Origin: Candidatus Syntropharchaeum sp.
GTDB taxonomy: Archaea > Halobacteriota > Syntropharchaeia > Syntropharchaeales > Syntropharchaeaceae
Direction: 5' to 3'
NCBI GenBank assembly: GCA_026134025.1
Contig: JAOQII010000004.1
Coordinates: 19,409 to 83,408, forward strand
Length of the DNA: 64,000 nucleotides
Of the stretch, positions 13,090 to 62,533 are shown in pieces. Below the pieces are notes generated by a model. It saw only the letters and a program-made list of their open reading frames with translations. It was not told the origin of the DNA and searched no databases. Each line of letters begins with the position of its first letter. Within the stretch, counting starts at the first letter, position 1. The translations under genes were made by a program, and so were the position numbers.

Positions 13090-13884
13090 GTGGCAATCGA
13101 GATTAATGTCATCGAGCTCACTGAGAGGTATGCAAAGTTCATAATATCTGGCCTGACACCCGCGTCTGCAAACGCGCTCAGGCGGTGCATGATCAATGAG
13201 GTACCGCGGATGGCGATCGATGAGGTTAATTTTTATGAAAATACATCAGTACTATTCGATGAACAGCTTGCATTGCGTCTTGGTCTCATACCACTCAGGG
13301 CAGATCCAGGACTTTACGTGCTGGAGGATGAGTGTACGTGTGAGGATGGCTGCTCACTCTGCCAGTCCACGGCTTCGATCAGTGCAGAAGGTCCCATAAA
13401 GATTTATTCGTCGGATCTCGTCATGGGCGATGAGAACATCTCGGTTGCAGATGATAATATATTGATCGTAGATCTCAAAGACGGGCAGAAACTTCTCTTG
13501 AACGCTATCATAAAGCTTGGAACAGGAGAAATGCACGCGAAATGGCAGAATGCTGTTGTATGTGGTTATAAAAACATCCCGCATGTGAGCATTACGGACT
13601 GCAACGATTGCGGTAGATGTGTTGATGTGTGTCCCAGAGACGTCTTTAAATGTGTGGATGGGCGTGTCATGATCGGGGATGATATCAACTGCTCATGCTG
13701 CAATCTCTGCGTGGAAGCCTGCGAGCTTGACGGAATCGTGATTGAAGAGGATCCTGAAGCGTTCCTCTTTAAACTTGAGACAGATGGAGGGATGACCGCG
13801 AGTGCGTTAATTGTCTATGCGGTTCGAATGCTTAGAGATAAGGCAGTCAGGCTGAAATCTGTGCTTGAGCGTTTTTCCCATTGA
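13090..13884 (+). CDS. rpoD: DNA-directed RNA polymerase subunit D (Rpo3) with 4Fe-4S cluster domain
   Basis: 264 aa, conserved position after S11, Cys clusters (CNDCGRCVDVCP, CSCCNLCVEAC). The last roughly 13 codons lie inside the 243-bp repeat. Confidence 0.85.
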   Translation: MAIEINVIELTERYAKFIISGLTPASANALRRCMINEVPRMAIDEVNFYENTSVLFDEQLALRLGLIPLRADPGLYVLEDECTCEDGCSLCQSTASISAEGPIKIYSSDLVMGDENISVADDNILIVDLKDGQKLLLNAIIKLGTGEMHAKWQNAVVCGYKNIPHVSITDCNDCGRCVDVCPRDVFKCVDGRVMIGDDINCSCCNLCVEACELDGIVIEEDPEAFLFKLETDGGMTASALIVYAVRMLRDKAVRLKSVLERFSH

Positions 13885-14088
13885 GCCTTATCCCGGTAAT
13901 CGTCGATATATTCTTCTCCTGCATCACAACACCGATCGTTGAAGAGGCACACTCGATCATCGGCTCTCTGAGTGAAACAACAATAAATTGCGCGCTCTTT
14001 GATAACTTTTTGATCATCTTTGCGACCTTCTCGACATTCACACCATCGAGCATCATATCTATCTCATCCAGTGCATAGAACGGTGCTG
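13846..14088. repeat. Copy 1 of a perfect 243-bp direct repeat, a duplicate of the smc 3' end (last about 75 codons, antisense) placed downstream of and overlapping the rpoD 3' end
   Basis: Nucleotide identity with 15706-15948 checked by eye. The ORF track shows identical 69-aa (minus) and 65-aa (plus) translations at both sites. Confidence 0.9.
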
Positions 14089-14118
14089 TCTGAAAAGAGA
14101 ATAAATTAGAGATCTGTC

Positions 14119-14892
14119 TTATTTCACCTCTGATTTTACAAATCCTTCTGTTCCGTTTATCAGCTCTTTAACTTCTTCTATTGGCGGTTCCTCTTTTGCA
14201 TGGTCACACTTATTACGAATATCCCCCAGCCATTCAATCTTTTTTCGTTTGGTTTCACTCAAATGACCCGCTTTACGCAATCCTTGGGCGAGTGAGTTGA
14301 TACCTTTAATAACAGTGTGATTCACAGGCGGCGTTGAAGTCTCGCATAAGGTCTTTAAATAGCGTTCCAATGCAACACCAGCAACCGCACCCGCAGCACG
14401 GATAAAACCGTGATCTAAAAGAAGTCTTGCCTCCTCTAATTCGCTTTCAACTAGATCTGCACTGATTGTTCTTCTTAATTTTAAGTTTTGTATTTCAAAG
14501 ACTTCAGGTAATGATAACAGTAAGTTCCTTTGTGTGTCAAAGAAATCTGTAAACTCTTTAATTATGTAATGCACATCAATCTTAGCCCAATCTTTTCGAA
14601 GTTGGAGTAAACATAAAATTTCCTCATATTCTTTTATAAATTCGTCTTTTCGATCAGATAAATATTCTTTTATCAGGGTTTCTCCTTTTGAATACCATAT
14701 TTGATATGATTGAACATATTTTCTTTGTTCCTCTCTAAAAGAGTTCTCGAATCACATCATTTCAGTATTTAAGTCATTTATATACGCAAACGTAAAGGTA
14801 TCAGATAAAAAACCAGTCACCTTTTTCTCAATTTCTTCTGCTTCCTTCTCCAATTCCCTAACAGTATGGATCAGTTCACTTAATTGTGTCAT
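14119..14892 (-). pseudogene. HEPN-domain protein (R-x4-H motif RNKCDH) interrupted by an in-frame TGA. A 47-codon N-terminal piece is followed by a 210-codon distal open frame; the listed GTG-initiated 151-aa ORF (14119-14574) is its terminal part
   Basis: Manual reverse-strand translation: ATG at 14892, in-frame TGA at 14752-14754, then a 59-codon stop-free frame continuing into ORF 14119..14574. The C-terminal GDIRNKCDHAKEE is the HEPN RNase signature. Confidence 0.5.
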
Positions 14893-14942
14893 TCATCTCA
14901 TCCCAAGTTCTTTAGACGTTTATTCTATTGAGAGATATCAAA

Positions 14943-15383
14943 TTATTCTTGCGTTAGGTATTCAAATGCACTGATATACTTGTATTTGATTACATTCTTG
15001 TATTTTGTTATCGTTCTTTCTTTTGCTACATCATGATACTTAGTTACCGTTCGTTGTTTAGCGACTTCGTGATACTTTGTGACTGTTCTCTCTTTTGGCA
15101 GATAAGTTACGACATATTGAAATTTGGAAGGTCGAAGTACTTCATAGGAGCAATTCAAAAATCTAGTACTATTAACCGTCCATTCGAATTGGTGGCTTTC
15201 ACCAGGCATCAAAAATACACTATCTGTTATAGCATTATATGATCGTTCAGTAGTTACTATATGGAAAACTACCTGAAACATTCCACCACTATCCTCTGTA
15301 TTCGTTATCATAACCATTAAATCAAGTAATTCGATAGACCCCAGTCCAGAGTACAACTTTAAAAAATGCTTATAAAAAACCAA
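14943..15383 (-). CDS. Hypothetical protein with C-terminal 11-aa tandem repeats (ERTVTKYHEVAKQ / RTVTKYHDVAKE / RTITKYKNVIKY)
   Basis: 146-aa ORF inside the repeat-flanked islet. Low GC. Confidence 0.35.
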   Translation of the reverse strand: MVFYKHFLKLYSGLGSIELLDLMVMITNTEDSGGMFQVVFHIVTTERSYNAITDSVFLMPGESHQFEWTVNSTRFLNCSYEVLRPSKFQYVVTYLPKERTVTKYHEVAKQRTVTKYHDVAKERTITKYKNVIKYKYISAFEYLTQE

Positions 15384-15421
15384 ACCCGATGTTTCATAAC
15401 TATATGGGATATTATCTGTGG

Positions 15422-15637
15422 TTAATTCTTTTTTTCATAATATGTTTCTACATCCTCATAAGGTTCCATTTCATAATATGTTTCTGTAGTTTCGTATGGC
15501 TCTGTTACATAATACGTCTCGGTCGCACTATATGGCTCCTTAACCGTGTAAGAGACTTCTATCACTGGCATAGATATTGCAACGCAAGCACACAATGTTG
15601 CCAATAAAGCACCTATTGCAATCCATTTCCTTTCCAT
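15422..15637 (-). CDS. Small secreted or membrane-anchored protein with triplicated EPY-x3-ETYY repeats
   Basis: MERKWIAIGALLATLCACVAIS signal-like N-terminus (internal Met of the 87-aa ORF), followed by KEPYSATETYYVTEPYETTETYYEMEPYEDVETYY. Confidence 0.35.
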   Translation of the reverse strand: MERKWIAIGALLATLCACVAISMPVIEVSYTVKEPYSATETYYVTEPYETTETYYEMEPYEDVETYYEKKN

Positions 15638-15705
15638 TTGTGAACCTCTAACTCTTTTTTTATTGATCCTATATAAAACTATCAATTCACATCTTAAGAG
15701 AAGCG

Positions 15706-15948
15706 GTCAGGCTGAAATCTGTGCTTGAGCGTTTTTCCCATTGAGCCTTATCCCGGTAATCGTCGATATATTCTTCTCCTGCATCACAACACCGATCGTT
15801 GAAGAGGCACACTCGATCATCGGCTCTCTGAGTGAAACAACAATAAATTGCGCGCTCTTTGATAACTTTTTGATCATCTTTGCGACCTTCTCGACATTCA
15901 CACCATCGAGCATCATATCTATCTCATCCAGTGCATAGAACGGTGCTG
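15706..15948. repeat. Copy 2 of the 243-bp direct repeat (the native 3' end of smc)
   Basis: Identical to 13846-14088 and contiguous with the smc body. Confidence 0.9.
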
Positions 15949-47198: not shown

Positions 47199-47483
47199 AA
47201 GGAATCCCCCGTATTATCTCTTTACTACGAGTTTCTATATATATGTATTTTCATTTGGTAATCGATTAGCGTGGAATTTGAGCGAATAGTTCTTTGGAAA
47301 GATTTTTAAATCGCAACTCATAGTGTTAATAACGATAACGACTCCTGGAGGTTCAAGAATGGGAGAGATGACAGAGGAGCAGAAACGGGTGAAGGTTCAG
47401 GCATGCAGGGATGAAGTGGGGGATAAGTTCCCGATGAAGACCTGCATCGAGCACTGCCCGCTCTATGAGATCTGTAAGGATCT

Positions 47484-47569
47484 GCCGAGGTAGCCAAGCG
47501 GCCTACGGCGCTGGTCTTGAAAACCAGTGGGGCATACGTCCCGCAAGGGTTCAAATCCCTTCCTCGGCG
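47484..47569 (+). tRNA. tRNA-Ser (anticodon TGA), class II with long variable arm
   Basis: Acceptor stem GCCGAGG/CCTCGGC, anticodon loop CTTGAAA, long extra arm, T-loop GGTTCAAATCC. Confidence 0.85.
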
Positions 47570-47578
47570 TTTTTTTTT
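47570..47578 (+). terminator. Oligo-T tract immediately 3' of tRNA-Ser (archaeal-type terminator)
   Basis: A run of nine T residues directly after the discriminator base. Confidence 0.45.
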
Positions 47579-47876
47579 GGGAAAGAGGCAATGCGTCTCT
47601 ATCGTAATTTTTTAATGTTGCATGACTCACACGACAAAACACCCACCTGTGGCAGGGCCACTGACGTGTTAGGTCGGAGACTGAGTTAAGAGGTAAGGTG
47701 AGATGCACCTCATGCTGAAAAATCACAATATTTGAGGTTTATCAACCCCGGGCACTTGATCTGAACGCTAATCGAGAGCGGTTGATGGATGAATGGGGAC
47801 TTAGCTGATCAGGTATTAAATGTTGCCATAAAGATATAAACAAATAAATTAAGTTCGAATAGTATGGTGGTAAGCC

Positions 47877-48905
47877 ATGGGTGATTACAGAGATCGGAGT
47901 TATTTATCTGCGATAGAAGCCGCTAAATTTCTAAATATTTCTGTGAAGAAATTGCACGGATTAACAAGAAATAATACTATCGAATACAAAAAATCAGCCA
48001 GCGGTCAGATGAGATACGATCTGGAAGACCTGAAAAAATACGCTGAAGAAAATCATATACAATTGGATGGCGTGAATATAGAAATAAAACGTCTCTCTCA
48101 GCTTAAAATAGACAACACCATTCAAAAATTCATTTTTGGGAGTTCTATGGAGATGAAAGAGTTAGAAGATGATTCGGTACATCTCATGATCACTTCGCCA
48201 CCGTATTTTAACGCTAAAATGTATACAAATGAGCCGATTGAAGGCGATTTAGGGAATGTTCATGATTTAAATGAATGGTTTTCAGATATATCAAAAGTTT
48301 GGAAAGAGGTTTATCGAGTATTACAACCCGGTAGAAAAGCCTTTATTAACATAATGAATCTTCCCATACGAGAAAATAAAACTTTCAGGAGTCTAAATCT
48401 GGTTGGTAAAACAATTGATGTTATGGAAGATATTGGTTTTATTTTTAAGAGAGACATAATATGGCATAAAACAAACGGTGTTAAAGCACACTTCGGAACG
48501 TATCCATATCCAGGCGGTATATTGTTAAATAACATGCACGAATTCATATTAGAATTTAGCAAACCCGAGAAGAGAGGATTTAAAAAATACGGACATCTAA
48601 CCAAAGAACAGAAAGAAAAATCAAAAATAGAAAAAGATTTCTGGTTGAAATTAAAAAACAGTGATGTATGGTTGATAAAACCAGAAAAAAGCGGGGATAA
48701 CCGTAATCATGTAGCGCCTTTCCCCTATGAACTTCCTTTTCGGTTGATCAAAGCCTACAGTTACATTTCTGAGACCGTACTCGATCCCTTTGCGGGCTCA
48801 TTTGTTACATTGAAAGCCGCAAAAGATTTAGAAAGAAACGGAATTGGGTATGAGATAAATAAAGAAATTCTCAAGGAGGCACTGATTGAATTTGAAAGTG
48901 AGTAA
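47877..48905 (+). CDS. DNA methyltransferase (N4-C/N6-A, beta-class, SPPY motif) with N-terminal HTH
   Basis: Motif IV ITSPPYF precedes motif I LDPFAGSFVT. N-terminal MerR/excisionase-like HTH (LSAIEAAKFLNISVKKL). GC visibly lower than its surroundings. Confidence 0.8.
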   Translation: MGDYRDRSYLSAIEAAKFLNISVKKLHGLTRNNTIEYKKSASGQMRYDLEDLKKYAEENHIQLDGVNIEIKRLSQLKIDNTIQKFIFGSSMEMKELEDDSVHLMITSPPYFNAKMYTNEPIEGDLGNVHDLNEWFSDISKVWKEVYRVLQPGRKAFINIMNLPIRENKTFRSLNLVGKTIDVMEDIGFIFKRDIIWHKTNGVKAHFGTYPYPGGILLNNMHEFILEFSKPEKRGFKKYGHLTKEQKEKSKIEKDFWLKLKNSDVWLIKPEKSGDNRNHVAPFPYELPFRLIKAYSYISETVLDPFAGSFVTLKAAKDLERNGIGYEINKEILKEALIEFESE

Positions 48906-49356
48906 ACCAGATCTTACCAGAATCAATGATTCGATGAATTACTTACTCACCCATTCATACCCCCTTTCTCCATGATCAAGCCATTGCTCCATCCAATCCA
49001 ACCATACGCCCCTCACATCCACTATCTCCAAAAACTTGGTCTAAGACCTTCTCCACTTCAAAAACAGATGCTGGTGGATTTTTCCAGAATAAATAAGCAG
49101 ATGTGACCTCCTCTTGAGCTTTGTGCGGTGTCGTTTGTTGTGATTTATAATCTTAAAGTCAGTGATGAAGTTCAAGCCTTTAAACGCTTGGGTTGTGAAT
49201 AATACATCCTGTAAGAGTTTATAGATTCCATTGGCAGGTTTGTGATCTTCTCTGCTGCTCTTATGCTCAAATATGGAGATTTGATCCTGAGTGTGGCAGT
49301 GTCTGACTGCAAGTCGGAAGCAGGGTTAGAATTGGGCGATTGGAGTGGGTGGGGAG

Positions 49357-49402
49357 TTATAAAAGGAGATGGTCTGAGTATGAATAATTACGCAAGAGGT
49401 CT
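49357..49402 (+). repeat. 46-bp conserved element, copy A (ttataaaaGGAGATGGTCTGAGTATGAATAATTACGCAAGAGGTCT)
   Basis: 42/46 identity with 62488-62533. Begins with a TATA-like ttataaaa. Confidence 0.7.
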
Positions 49403-49473
49403 ATTTAAATGCTGAACCAATATCTTTATATAATCTCCATTAGATATAATTCTTAGCTTAAAGGGGGAAAAGC

Positions 49474-50169
49474 ATGAGTAGATATTCAATAGATGAGTTT
49501 GTACGTGCCACATCAGAGCGAGATCGCGGTGAGGGCCCATTTGAGCTTGAGAACGATCGGACGCTGGAGATCCAGCTTGATGGTATGGTATGGATAAAAA
49601 TGGGATCGATGGTCGCGTACAATGGTAATATTAAGTTCACGCGCGAGGGTGTTCTGGAACATGGTATCGGCAAGATGCTGAAGAAAGCGGTCACAGGCGA
49701 GGGAACGATGCTCACAAAGGCAGAAGGGAGTGGGAATCTCTATCTTGCAGACAGCGGTAAGAAGATCTCTGTAATAGAACTTCAGGGAGATTCAATCACC
49801 GTCAACGGGAACGACCTCCTCGCATTCCAGAATTCGGTCAAGTGGGATATAACGATGATGAAGAAGATAACAGGGGTGCTTGCAGGCGGGCTTTTCAATG
49901 TCAAGCTTCAGGGGGAGGGTATGATCGCGATAACCACTCATTACGACCCTGTAACACTTATTGTAAAGCCTGGTGAACCTGTATTCACAGACCCGAATGC
50001 AACCGTTGCATGGTCATCTAACCTCGCCCCGGATCTCAAGGCGGATGTCTCACTGAAGACCCTGGTTGGCAGAACGAGCGGTGAGACAATTCAGATGAGG
50101 TTCGATGGTGATGGTTTCGTCGTTATCCAGCCTTTCGAGGAGATTTACTACATGGAGACAACGGCTTGA
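49474..50169 (+). CDS. AIM24/DUF124-family protein
   Basis: 231 aa; beta-rich sequence with the characteristic G-rich repeats (KMLKKAVTGEGTMLTKAEGSGNLYLADSGKKI...LAGGLFNVKLQGEGMIAI). Confidence 0.6.
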   Translation: MSRYSIDEFVRATSERDRGEGPFELENDRTLEIQLDGMVWIKMGSMVAYNGNIKFTREGVLEHGIGKMLKKAVTGEGTMLTKAEGSGNLYLADSGKKISVIELQGDSITVNGNDLLAFQNSVKWDITMMKKITGVLAGGLFNVKLQGEGMIAITTHYDPVTLIVKPGEPVFTDPNATVAWSSNLAPDLKADVSLKTLVGRTSGETIQMRFDGDGFVVIQPFEEIYYMETTA

Positions 50170-50176
50170 TCGAGCT

Positions 50177-50752
50177 ATGAAGATTGAGAACGTTGTTGTA
50201 ATAATCGTAATCCTCGCTGCAGTCGGGATCATTTACCTGAACCTCGATAGGGAAGAGCTTGCTCCACTCAAAGAGGCGATTGATGCAGGTATTGAGGGCG
50301 GTTCATACTATATTAACCTTTTGATAGACGGTTTTGCTGACCTCCTCTCCCCTGTCACCTCAAAGGTTGTTATGAAAGGTGAGTATGTTAATACAGGTGA
50401 CCTTGAGATGACAATCAGCGAATGCGAGCTTGTTGATAGCGTTTTTGCAGAGGAGGGTGCAGCTTATCTTCTGGCACTTGTAAGTGTTAGAAACGTTGGA
50501 CAGGTTCCAGCGCACCTCCCAATTTTGATAGATATGCGCCTCTACTATCTCGATGATGTGATTCGACCAAAGAAAAGCTGGCGTGTTCCAGGCGGTAGGA
50601 CACACTACGATCCTCTTACAACAGATAAAATCTATCCAAATATCACAAAGGAAGGATGGGTATGCTTTGAGGTCCCAAAAGATATGAATCTCTCAGAAGC
50701 TGTAGTATCGGCGAGGTGTGAGGGTAGAAGGATTAAGTGGATGTGTGGTTGA
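50177..50752 (+). CDS. Membrane-anchored hypothetical protein (DUF4352-like beta-sandwich)
   Basis: N-terminal TM (VVVIIVILAAVGIIYL), then a soluble domain. Start taken at the internal Met after the AIM24 stop. Confidence 0.4.
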   Translation: MKIENVVVIIVILAAVGIIYLNLDREELAPLKEAIDAGIEGGSYYINLLIDGFADLLSPVTSKVVMKGEYVNTGDLEMTISECELVDSVFAEEGAAYLLALVSVRNVGQVPAHLPILIDMRLYYLDDVIRPKKSWRVPGGRTHYDPLTTDKIYPNITKEGWVCFEVPKDMNLSEAVVSARCEGRRIKWMCG

Positions 50753-50877
50753 CGCCATGGATATGGGATAATCGAAATAGTTATGTAAACCTACTGATAG
50801 AAGGGGGAGAATTAGTGTCGAGGTATTTGTTTAGCTCCCCTCTTTTAACCTTTCTTCAATCGATATTCTCTGAATGA

Positions 50878-51144
50878 ATGGCACGAAGAATAACACATTT
50901 CGATCCATGTATCAGTAAAAATGATAGAGGGCTACTCAGAGAACTTCGGGATGAAACTGCACATCTGAAAGAAGAGAATGCAAGACATGCCAAAGAAATC
51001 GAAGAAACGTGGCGCTCCAAAGGGTATTCAGGATGCATTCCTGCGTGTTCATGGATGAGACCGGAGGTAAGGAGCTTTCAAGAGGTGATTCATGAGAAGT
51101 TCAGGTTGCAGAGGACATATTTGAAGAGCTTGATGGGTTGTTGA
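50878..51144 (+). CDS. Hypothetical small protein
   Basis: 88-aa ORF. Weak support. Confidence 0.2.
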   Translation: MARRITHFDPCISKNDRGLLRELRDETAHLKEENARHAKEIEETWRSKGYSGCIPACSWMRPEVRSFQEVIHEKFRLQRTYLKSLMGC

Positions 51145-62487: not shown

Positions 62488-62533
62488 TTATAAAAAGTGA
62501 TGGTCTGAGTATGAATGATTACGCAAGAGGTCT
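62488..62533 (+). repeat. 46-bp conserved element, copy B (ttataaaaAGTGATGGTCTGAGTATGAATGATTACGCAAGAGGTCT)
   Basis: Near-identical to 49357-49402. Located about 150 bp 3' of tRNA-Leu. Confidence 0.7.

Follow-up and report, generated by a model that had tools for sequence, protein, structure and literature searches.

Orphan m4C methylases are common in archaea, as are patchy horizontal gene transfer and loss (PMC10609329). The gene analyzed here lies in a 64-kb window, the whole stretch of DNA under study, from Candidatus Syntrophoarchaeum sp., and its product resembles the archaeal orphan Type II m4C/m6A methylases on record (REBASE; PMC10609329, PMC6471742) in that it is a chromosomally encoded class-beta N6_N4 enzyme with no adjacent nuclease. 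As in that group, its patchy occurrence is best fitted by horizontal transfer combined with loss, while within its species-level population it is conserved. Above the species level, however, it does not appear 'persistent', since it is missing beside the AIM24 gene of a sister species, and unlike archaeal orphan methylases it combines an N-terminal HTH_17 domain with a variant motif I (FxGxF).

The closest solved structure is that of TTHA0409 (M.TthA0409) from Thermus thermophilus HB8 (PDB 2ZIE/2ZIF/2ZIG), retrieved by Foldseek at 8e-13 with a TM score of 0.72 on the target. Both proteins have the class-beta order of motifs, an SPPY motif IV and a C-terminal motif I region, but TTHA0409 has no HTH_17 domain, shows a canonical FAGTG motif I, has a specificity that is itself 'putative', and shares approximately 27-35% identity with the methylase in the catalytic domain only. 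M.PvuII and the rotifer N4CMT, both class-beta N4-cytosine methyltransferases, have the fold in common (Foldseek 5e-8 and 3e-12, respectively) and are distant at 18-23% identity; N4CMT, a structurally characterized m4C enzyme, likewise has SPPY as its motif IV (PMC10406627). A further point of reference is provided by methylases that carry an HTH and regulate their own expression (PMC2760811, PMC3978073). In SsoII and Ecl18kI, as here, a Type II methylase from a compact restriction-modification (R-M) cassette has a DNA-binding HTH at its N-terminal end, connected through a linker. Those enzymes are C5-cytosine methylases with another type of HTH and divergently oriented R and M genes, whereas the present family is of class beta, has an HTH_17 of the excisionase/MerR type and is encoded co-directionally with its partner, so that the analogy is one of mechanism only.

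The landmark of the locus is a host gene for tRNA-Ser(TGA) on the forward strand (47483-47570; ARAGORN, and Rfam RF00005 with 58.8 bits), directly followed on its 3' side by a T9 run read from the sequence at 47571-47579. Non-coding DNA of host-like GC content (47580-47807; 46-48% in a fine GC profile) separates it from the foreign segment, which starts with an upstream region (47808-47876, + strand) that in blastn matches the sequence preceding the gene in L086 (698-761), the nearest relative with a linked partner, and would have been transferred together with the gene it precedes. This gene (47877-48905, + strand) encodes, as evidenced by Pfam, PADLOC, phmmer and Foldseek, a class-beta amino-DNA methyltransferase of 342 amino acids that is solitary within the window, and it begins 306 bp past the 3' end of the tRNA. 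A non-coding spacer of 40% GC follows (48906-49419), delimited by six-frame translation, and then the native upstream region of the AIM24 gene (49420-49473, + strand), recognized by blastn of the sister-species loci L090 and L091 against the window. The methylase gene and some 70 bp of its own upstream sequence thus occupy part of the intergenic DNA that separates tRNA-Ser from AIM24, and neither flank of the gene contains a long ORF.

An earlier note on this DNA had described a low-GC orphan methyltransferase of the beta class with an N-terminal HTH, lacking a restriction endonuclease, an integrase and a duplicate of the tRNA end, and followed by short broken frames; this description held, and it can now be given in numbers. 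The HTH, which covers residues 9-59 (47901-48053), is recognized by the PF12728 HTH_17 profile with 32.8 bits (E 8e-8; curated cut-off 27), and in an AF2 model it forms a helix-helix-strand-helix arrangement over residues 12-58; the TIGR01764 'excise' profile matches it with 20.6 bits, under its cut-off of 28.8. An N-terminal HTH of the excisionase type is a family-wide feature. A linker of approximately residues 60-85 leads to the catalytic domain, for which PF01555 (N6_N4_Mtase) aligns at residues 101-335 (48177-48881) with an E-value of 3.6e-44 over profile positions 1-219 of 221. Direct reading of the sequence places SPPY, motif IV, at residues 107-110 (48195-48206) and DPFAGSF, motif I, at residues 303-309 (48783-48803). 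The order IV-TRD-I is the circularly permuted one by which class beta is defined (PMC7544214), and SPPY conforms to the motif IV pattern (D/N/S)-P-P-(Y/F/W). Residues T106-S107-P108-P109-Y110 are invariant in a 38-sequence alignment (A5), and TSPPY is present in all eight of the commonest motif IV variants listed. PADLOC assigns the protein to MTase_II (7.6e-59), phmmer against the PDB retrieves TTHA0409 (5e-33), and the AF2 model matches TTHA0409, N4CMT, CcrM, RsrI and PvuII in Foldseek with E-values from 8e-13 to 5e-8. The protein is predicted still to bind AdoMet and probably to methylate DNA. The modified base is probably m4C rather than m6A: SPPY is the motif IV of N4CMT, and phage homologs of the methylase are annotated as N4-cytosine methylases. 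Note that m4C and m6A enzymes are sometimes nearly alike (PMC10609329).

A deviation is found in motif I, where the consensus FxGxG reads F-A-G-S-F and the last glycine, present in all solved class-beta relatives that were aligned, is replaced by phenylalanine. This raises the question whether the enzyme is dead or dying with an ORF that is still recent, or persists purely as an HTH DNA-binding protein, and the GC content of the gene, which has not been ameliorated and implies recency, would fit such a reading. The phenylalanine, however, is common to the whole nearest clade (the window protein and P0001-P0005), whose members are mutually 67-80% identical, and further homologs have A, L, M or C at this position; the variant thus appears to be old and tolerated. 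One clade member, P0004, even combines FAGSF with an intact adjoining partner gene. Among 119 homologs, 153 positions show a conservation of 95% or more, and the methylase deviates at two of them, which equals the family median. Its mean identity to 115 outgroup homologs (66.3%) is close to that of the partner-linked P0004 (66.6%), so that there is no acceleration in rate. Across five population variants not a single stop or frameshift was found. The polymorphism relative to the same-species contig L001, 6 non-synonymous and 4 synonymous changes, is only weakly suggestive of constraint and can also be listed on the side of decay. Taken with the points above, we consider loss of the enzymatic function decidedly improbable; to judge by its sequence the methylase appears well preserved and not decaying.

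This preservation extends through the population. The protein matches MCW7076030.1, an annotated product of Candidatus Syntrophoarchaeum sp., at 100% identity; proteins of 98-100% identity occur in five public records, and L001, L087 and L088 each have the intact ORF at this site. Whether the methylase is a conserved core gene at this position, a circumstance that the earlier note had named as speaking against its reading, has a divided answer: it is fixed among the same-species contigs seen, yet absent beside AIM24 in the sister species, and hence is not an old core gene.

With a GC content of 34.7% the methylase gene stands out from the window mean of 45.8% (sd 3.1% in 1029-bp windows) at z = -3.6, so that GC is far from uniform; fewer than 1% of windows are equally low, and all of them fall on the methylase gene or on an island at 14-16 kb. 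The GC3 value is 0.327, whereas genes average 0.479 (sd 0.054). As a side observation, a second island is located at the smc gene and is bounded by a 246-bp repeat. The methylase gene is judged foreign on account of its low GC content and because its nearest full relatives reside in low-GC contigs of bacterial type. In blastn, window positions 47808-48880 align with positions 698-1768 of L086 at 71.9% identity, and DNA homology to the foreign relatives is limited to this 1.07 kb, that is, the gene and about 70 bp upstream of it. Scanning the genome contigs for AIM24 in search of an empty site returned only a mis-binned 3.4-kb copy and distant bacterial homologs, a metagenome scan with the HAD phosphatase gave relatives lacking the tRNA-Ser synteny, and the AIM24 relatives of 90% (L090/L091) and 75% identity (L099/L100) have other neighbors on both sides and provide no empty site. 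As no empty-site relative was found, the boundaries of the insertion are drawn from homology and GC content alone.

A strongly foreign composition might also arise if a bacterial fragment had been joined chimerically to an archaeal contig during assembly or binning, and a public copy of the locus, QMLL01000344.1, does carry the label Deltaproteobacteria. This 3.4-kb contig is itself mis-binned archaeal DNA, though, and both junctions recur in independent assemblies from different samples, L001 (JGI 3300013103), L087 (ERZ2433807) and L088 (ERZ23491060), of which L087 spans 40.7 kb and is 99.0% identical over 20.7 kb. In addition, an 87.7-kb NCBI contig carries both MCW7076030.1 and MCW7076031.1, where the adjacency of methylase and AIM24 is suggested by the consecutive accession numbers alone. 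An artefact therefore deserves hardly any credence.

The family context of the methylase differs from its solitary state in the archaeal window. Homologs of 65-72% identity in five unrelated genomes are followed, after only 4-10 bp, by a conserved partner gene for a protein of about 375 amino acids, and in L003/L004, L075-L080, L081, L082 and L086 the ORF immediately after the methylase encodes such a partner. The partner proteins align with one another at 54-85% identity, and the L086 partner is recovered by an HMM of the other partners at 4e-162. These donor-like loci have a GC content of 30-36%. L086 represents a complete cassette with a methylase that is 71% identical by alignment (72% by BLASTP), and it stems from the metagenome assembly that also yielded the same-species contig L088. 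Neither tblastn nor HMM searches returned a match to the partner family in the 64-kb window, in line with the solitary status claimed before, and the partner is absent as well from the 20.7 kb that were read of contig L087 (40.7 kb in total). No restriction endonuclease adjoins the methylase, ORFs in the 568 bp downstream being at most 57 amino acids long. The best phage and plasmid homologs of the methylase remain below 40% identity, and IMG/VR contains no close homolog. A comparison of site counts in quartets for a single versus a repeated loss of the partner ended in a tie of approximately 7:7.

The partner is presumed to be a restriction endonuclease. It has no recognizable nuclease domain or fold, a confident AF2 model found no match in the PDB, and its homologs, at least 750 in number, are all annotated as hypothetical. 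An example of the partner is IALB_0626 of Ignavibacterium album, which likewise adjoins a methylase gene. The R-M label thus derives from gene context and a D...ExQ motif picked out by eye. We consider it likely that the archaeal protein is a Type II class-beta methylase from a bacterial-type cassette that was acquired horizontally and is now solitary. The designation as an R-M remnant, offered before as one of two possibilities, is then reasonable by descent, since methylases of this family are as a rule closely followed by a partner gene, but not in the sense of a decaying locus, as the methylase is intact. There is a slim chance of something else altogether, an undescribed two-gene family for defense or R-M that inserts next to tRNA genes in the absence of any integrase, with the excisionase-like HTH of the methylase conceivably helping, and whose methylase half (FxGxF) has been domesticated as an epigenetic regulator in this uncultured archaeon.

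The position of the gene next to tRNA-Ser had previously been taken, in the second of those possibilities, as typical of a degraded integrative element targeting the tRNA, with integrase, attachment site and endonuclease decayed into the flanks. The distance of only 306 bp to the tRNA has parallels in the family: in L003 a tRNA-Ser(CGA) lies 197 bp upstream of the family member, in L081 a tRNA-Pro is found 12 bp past the partner, and in L082, whose surroundings also include a Thoeris TIR gene and a recombinase fragment, a tRNA-Pro is located 2 kb upstream. In three of eight independent family contexts a tRNA gene is no more than 310 bp away, where roughly 3% would be expected, and about 800 bp of non-coding DNA around the methylase gene are left unexplained. 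Against this, no Pfam domain of an integrase or recombinase was detected among the genes called in the 20.7-kb locus on L087, a same-species contig on which 10 kb to either side of AIM24 span the whole methylase locus. No exact copy of tRNA-Ser sequence of at least 12 bp exists elsewhere in the 64-kb window, hence there is no att direct repeat, and L003, L081 and L082 also lack tRNA repeats of at least 12-13 bp. Nor does GC content drop immediately after the tRNA, as had been stated: it is still 46-48% over 47540-47780, and the fall begins near 47780-47800, some 210-230 bp past the tRNA. Homology to the relatives starts 238 bp after tRNA-Ser, and positions 47580-47807 show no homology to the cassette relatives; on sequence grounds they appear to lie outside the acquired cassette. 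The foreign homology, finally, amounts to a mere 1.07 kb, which is about 1.1 kb of foreign DNA set off from the tRNA by roughly 230 bp.

The downstream DNA (48906-49473), approximately 570 bp that had been attributed to a decayed element or endonuclease, offers little to such an origin either. Its 568 bp have a GC content of 40.5%, ordinary when compared with 41.7% for the intergenic DNA of the genome overall, and blastn of L090/L091 aligns window positions 49420-50740 at 79% identity, so that homology to the sister species sets in 54 bp 5' of the AIM24 ATG and this is the only portion of the spacer in common. A remnant of a restriction enzyme was sought here and rejected: neither tblastn with word size 2 nor hmmsearch --max rose above noise in the search for the partner (best E 0.16-0.26). 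The spacer has no plasmid matches, no Rfam families and no tandem repeats, and comparison to 95 other loci gave only chance matches of 26-29 bp; the flanks are unlike the partner, plasmids, phages or any locus that was fetched. The spacer is C-rich on the + strand at 48920-49100. After 49011, between CCCTCACA repeats, it has a 30-bp indel that varies among strains, and a 46-bp repeat that shows no convincing RNA fold and is absent from IMG/VR is present in it once (49358-49402). Set against the tRNA coincidences, these findings make a decayed tRNA-targeting element unlikely.

The co-transferred upstream region (47808-47876) contains an AT-rich TTGCCA-N16-TAAATT / GATATAAAC stretch, and a GGTGGT site resembling a Shine-Dalgarno sequence is found 7 nt 5' of the methylase ATG. 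A sigma-70-like match at 47823-47850 may be regarded as a candidate promoter in the archaeon. By analogy to the autoregulatory methylases, the HTH probably binds the promoter of the cassette itself. A search for inverted repeats of at least 12 nt in 47780-47880 was negative, and no clear palindrome is common to the upstream regions of eight homologous loci, among which only the window and L086 can be aligned in this part.

For the acquisition of a solitary methylase by horizontal transfer, the following course of events can be proposed. In a low-GC (30-37%) donor pool the gene would have come first in a compact cassette of two genes, and Candidatus Syntrophoarchaeum sp. would have acquired the methylase together with roughly 70 bp of the DNA preceding it (47808-48905), the partner either having been lost before the transfer or cleanly deleted afterwards. 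Selection would since maintain an intact enzyme, predicted to methylate the exocyclic amino group of a base within a short specific sequence throughout the host chromosome. In the absence of a cognate nuclease, such methylation may serve as an epigenetic mark, or it may guard the host against newly arriving cassettes that share its specificity and are present in the same sediment; alternatively, the gene might merely persist once the toxic half was gone.

The locus would then represent an inter-domain transfer of an R-M methylase into an alkane-oxidizing archaeon, where it is kept without its nuclease. Transfer and nuclease-free retention form a pattern that is well known in archaea, and in this respect the case carries little weight beyond bookkeeping. 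It does lead to the prediction that the DNA of Syntrophoarchaeum is methylated at one specific motif, probably as m4C, and this motif could bear on future genetic manipulation of the organism. Three side results may prove more useful than the methylase locus itself: the mis-binned public contig, the second island at the smc gene, and the partner proteins, which constitute a large, uncharacterized family and a candidate for a new restriction enzyme.

Between tRNA-Ser(TGA) (47483-47570, with nine T's directly after it) and the AIM24 gene (49474-50169) we find a single substantial open reading frame, 47877-48905 on the plus strand, encoding a methylase of 342 amino acids. An excisionase/MerR-type HTH_17 domain (residues 9-59, E 8e-8) is followed by an N6_N4_Mtase domain (residues 101-335, E 3.6e-44) in which motif IV, SPPY (48195-48206), lies ahead of motif I, DPFAGSF (48783-48803), the order that defines class beta (PMC7544214). 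Among solved proteins the enzyme is closest to TTHA0409, a methylase of Thermus (phmmer 5e-33), and the AlphaFold model (pLDDT 68) structurally matches TTHA0409, rotifer N4CMT, CcrM, M.RsrI and M.PvuII. As N4CMT has the same SPPY at motif IV, the enzyme is probably m4C-forming (PMC10406627). The protein is already in GenBank, annotated as 'DNA methyltransferase [Candidatus Syntrophoarchaeum sp.]' (MCW7076030.1, 87.7-kb contig, 100% identity), and the accession that follows is its AIM24 neighbour. Note that on the other side a 44-aa Cys-rich frame, 47359-47493 (+), MGEMTEEQKRVKVQACRDEVGDKFPMKTCIEHCPLYEICKDLPR, runs with its stop codon 11 nt into tRNA-Ser; gene calling picked it up in the same-species contig L087 (7858-7992), and it has no Pfam or NCBIfam match.

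The earlier note's description of a low-GC, solitary HTH methylase beside tRNA-Ser thus holds, and the gene is foreign by composition, with a GC content of 34.7% vs 45.8% for the window (z = -3.6) and a GC3 of 0.327 vs a gene mean of 0.479. The drop in GC had, however, been placed immediately after the tRNA, whereas 46-48% is maintained over about 210 bp and the fall occurs only near 47780-47800. Nucleotide homology to relatives begins at 47808 (L086, the nearest relative with a partner gene) or 47866 (L002, which encodes the homologue P0002) and ends at about 48870-48880, short of the stop codon, and about 70 bp upstream of the methylase can be aligned to L086. From these limits the acquired segment would therefore measure about 1.1 kb, the methylase with its own upstream region.

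The 570 bp downstream (48906-49473), previously read as decayed DNA, do not bear out that description. At 40.5% they are close in GC content to the genome's ordinary intergenic DNA (41.7%), they contain no frame above 57 aa, no Rfam match, no tandem repeat and no match to plasmids or any fetched locus, and nothing in the ORF, homology or GC checks points to a nuclease or integrase derivative. The sister species shares the final 54 bp (49420-49473), which are the native AIM24 upstream region. A 30-bp indel between strains after 49011, flanked by CCCTCACA repeats, fits unconstrained DNA. The spacer also carries one copy (49358-49402) of a 46-bp repeat starting with TTATAAAA, 72 bp upstream of AIM24 and just left of the start of sister-species homology; the other copy, at 62489-62533, differs by 3 mismatches (0 such repeats are expected by chance) and follows tRNA-Leu(TAG) at a distance of about 150 bp. 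RNA folding gave nothing convincing for the repeat, and IMG/VR does not contain it. Elsewhere, the window's only other low-GC island (14089-15702, about 31-39% GC) is flanked by a perfect 246-bp direct repeat (13843-14088 and 15703-15948) that copies the smc 3' end including the last 69 codons. The island contains three small minus-strand ORFs, one of them (14119-14574) a HEPN-domain protein, and no integrase was seen. It has the look of DNA inserted at the 3' end of smc that left a long target duplication; the repeat could also be an assembly artefact.

The window itself is archaeal, its genes including glycerol-1-phosphate dehydrogenase, archaeal-type LeuRS and SMC. A chimeric assembly is ruled out, because this gene arrangement recurs, with about 99% identical nucleotides, in the independent assemblies L001 (3.4 kb), L087 (a 40.7-kb contig collinear over 20.7 kb) and L088. 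L001 is also L005 (QMLL01000344.1, 3403 bp), publicly labelled 'MAG: Deltaproteobacteria bacterium B119_G9'; as it is 98.9% identical, gap-free, to window 47662-51064, it is evidently mis-binned.

All same-species contigs have the methylase gene, and in the sister species (L090/L091, AIM24 90% identical) another gene lies upstream of AIM24, with neither tRNA nor methylase; the context differs again in the more distant L099, tRNA-Ser is not retained next to relatives of the HAD gene upstream, and no true empty site was found among the AIM24 and HAD-gene relatives examined. As far as can be seen the gene is species-specific, which together with its unameliorated GC argues for recent acquisition. 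The AIM24 and DUF4352 pair (49474-50752) stands in a different context in each relative examined (L090, L099), L099 having AIM24 without DUF4352 and then a ClpB-like gene; as homology to the sister species is moreover confined to 49420-50740, the region around the pair is rearranged between close species.

A decaying methylase was considered and rejected: the frame is intact in every population variant seen, it departs from the family at 2 of 153 positions at least 95% conserved (the family median is the same), and on average it is 66.3% identical to 115 outgroup homologues, or 73.0% over the catalytic domain only, on par with P0004, the partner-linked homologue in L086 (66.6% and 72.6%). The final Gly of FxGxG in motif I, present in solved relatives, is Phe here. 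As this variant is common to the whole nearest clade (P0001-P0005, 70-98% identical to the window protein) and in P0004 adjoins a full-length partner, it is old and presumably compatible with activity.

The family is very large, its top members 65-70% identical and spread over many bacterial phyla. In five independent contexts (L003/L004, L075-L080, L081, L082 and L086) a conserved ORF of about 375 aa lies 4-10 bp downstream of the methylase (e.g. L086 1818-2966, L078 1568-2692, L081 7052-8218, L082 7058-8182). These partners align at 54-85% identity, that of L086 matching their HMM at 4e-162, and belong to a family of at least 750 members, all annotated 'hypothetical', with no Pfam domain and no NCBIfam, PADLOC or PDB match. 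The AF2 model is confident (pLDDT 86) and has no significant structural neighbour; E34/E36, D78 and E92-x-Q94 are invariant. Tight linkage, co-orientation and 1-bp frameshift alleles make the partner a presumed restriction endonuclease of an uncharacterised family. The single frameshift is found in L075 (7073-8198), L077 and L079, the intact frame in L078 and L080, the genes being otherwise 100% identical beside identical methylase proteins; either the presumed nuclease is naturally inactivated or phase-variable, or the frameshift is a sequencing error in a homopolymer. The partner is undetectable in the 568 bp downstream of the window methylase and in the rest of the window, and P0002 (archaeal-looking context) and P0003 (L083) of the nearest clade are solitary too. 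In a WOR-3 bacterium (L082 3811-9078) the complete cassette sits in a small defence island ordered tRNA-Pro, truncated serine-recombinase fragment, HTH_3 gene, methylase, partner and Thoeris ThsB TIR gene, the C-protein-like HTH_3 gene ending 4 bp upstream of the methylase.

Of the two origins offered in the earlier note, descent from a restriction-modification system is supported, as are the foreign origin and solitary state of the gene; a degraded integrative element is not. Window and locus searches confirmed that nuclease partner, integrase and att repeat are missing, and the hallmarks of such an element are absent: there is no integrase near the locus, no copy of the tRNA sequence in the window, and phages, plasmids and IMG/VR contain no close homologue of the methylase. 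A tRNA island as vehicle is possible, given a tRNA gene within 310 bp in 3/8 family contexts, but att repeats are present in none of these.

In archaea, orphan m4C methylases with patchy transfer or loss are common (PMC10609329, PMC6471742). By analogy with SsoII/Ecl18kI (PMC3978073, PMC2760811) the HTH is probably an autoregulator acting at the cassette promoter; no operator was found in the upstream regions examined. L086, with its complete cassette, and the same-species contig L088 come from one assembly. We consider it quite likely that this is a solitary Type II class-beta methylase that would modify a short sequence genome-wide; the methylation would be an epigenetic mark or would give protection from complete cassettes co-occurring in the same sediment.
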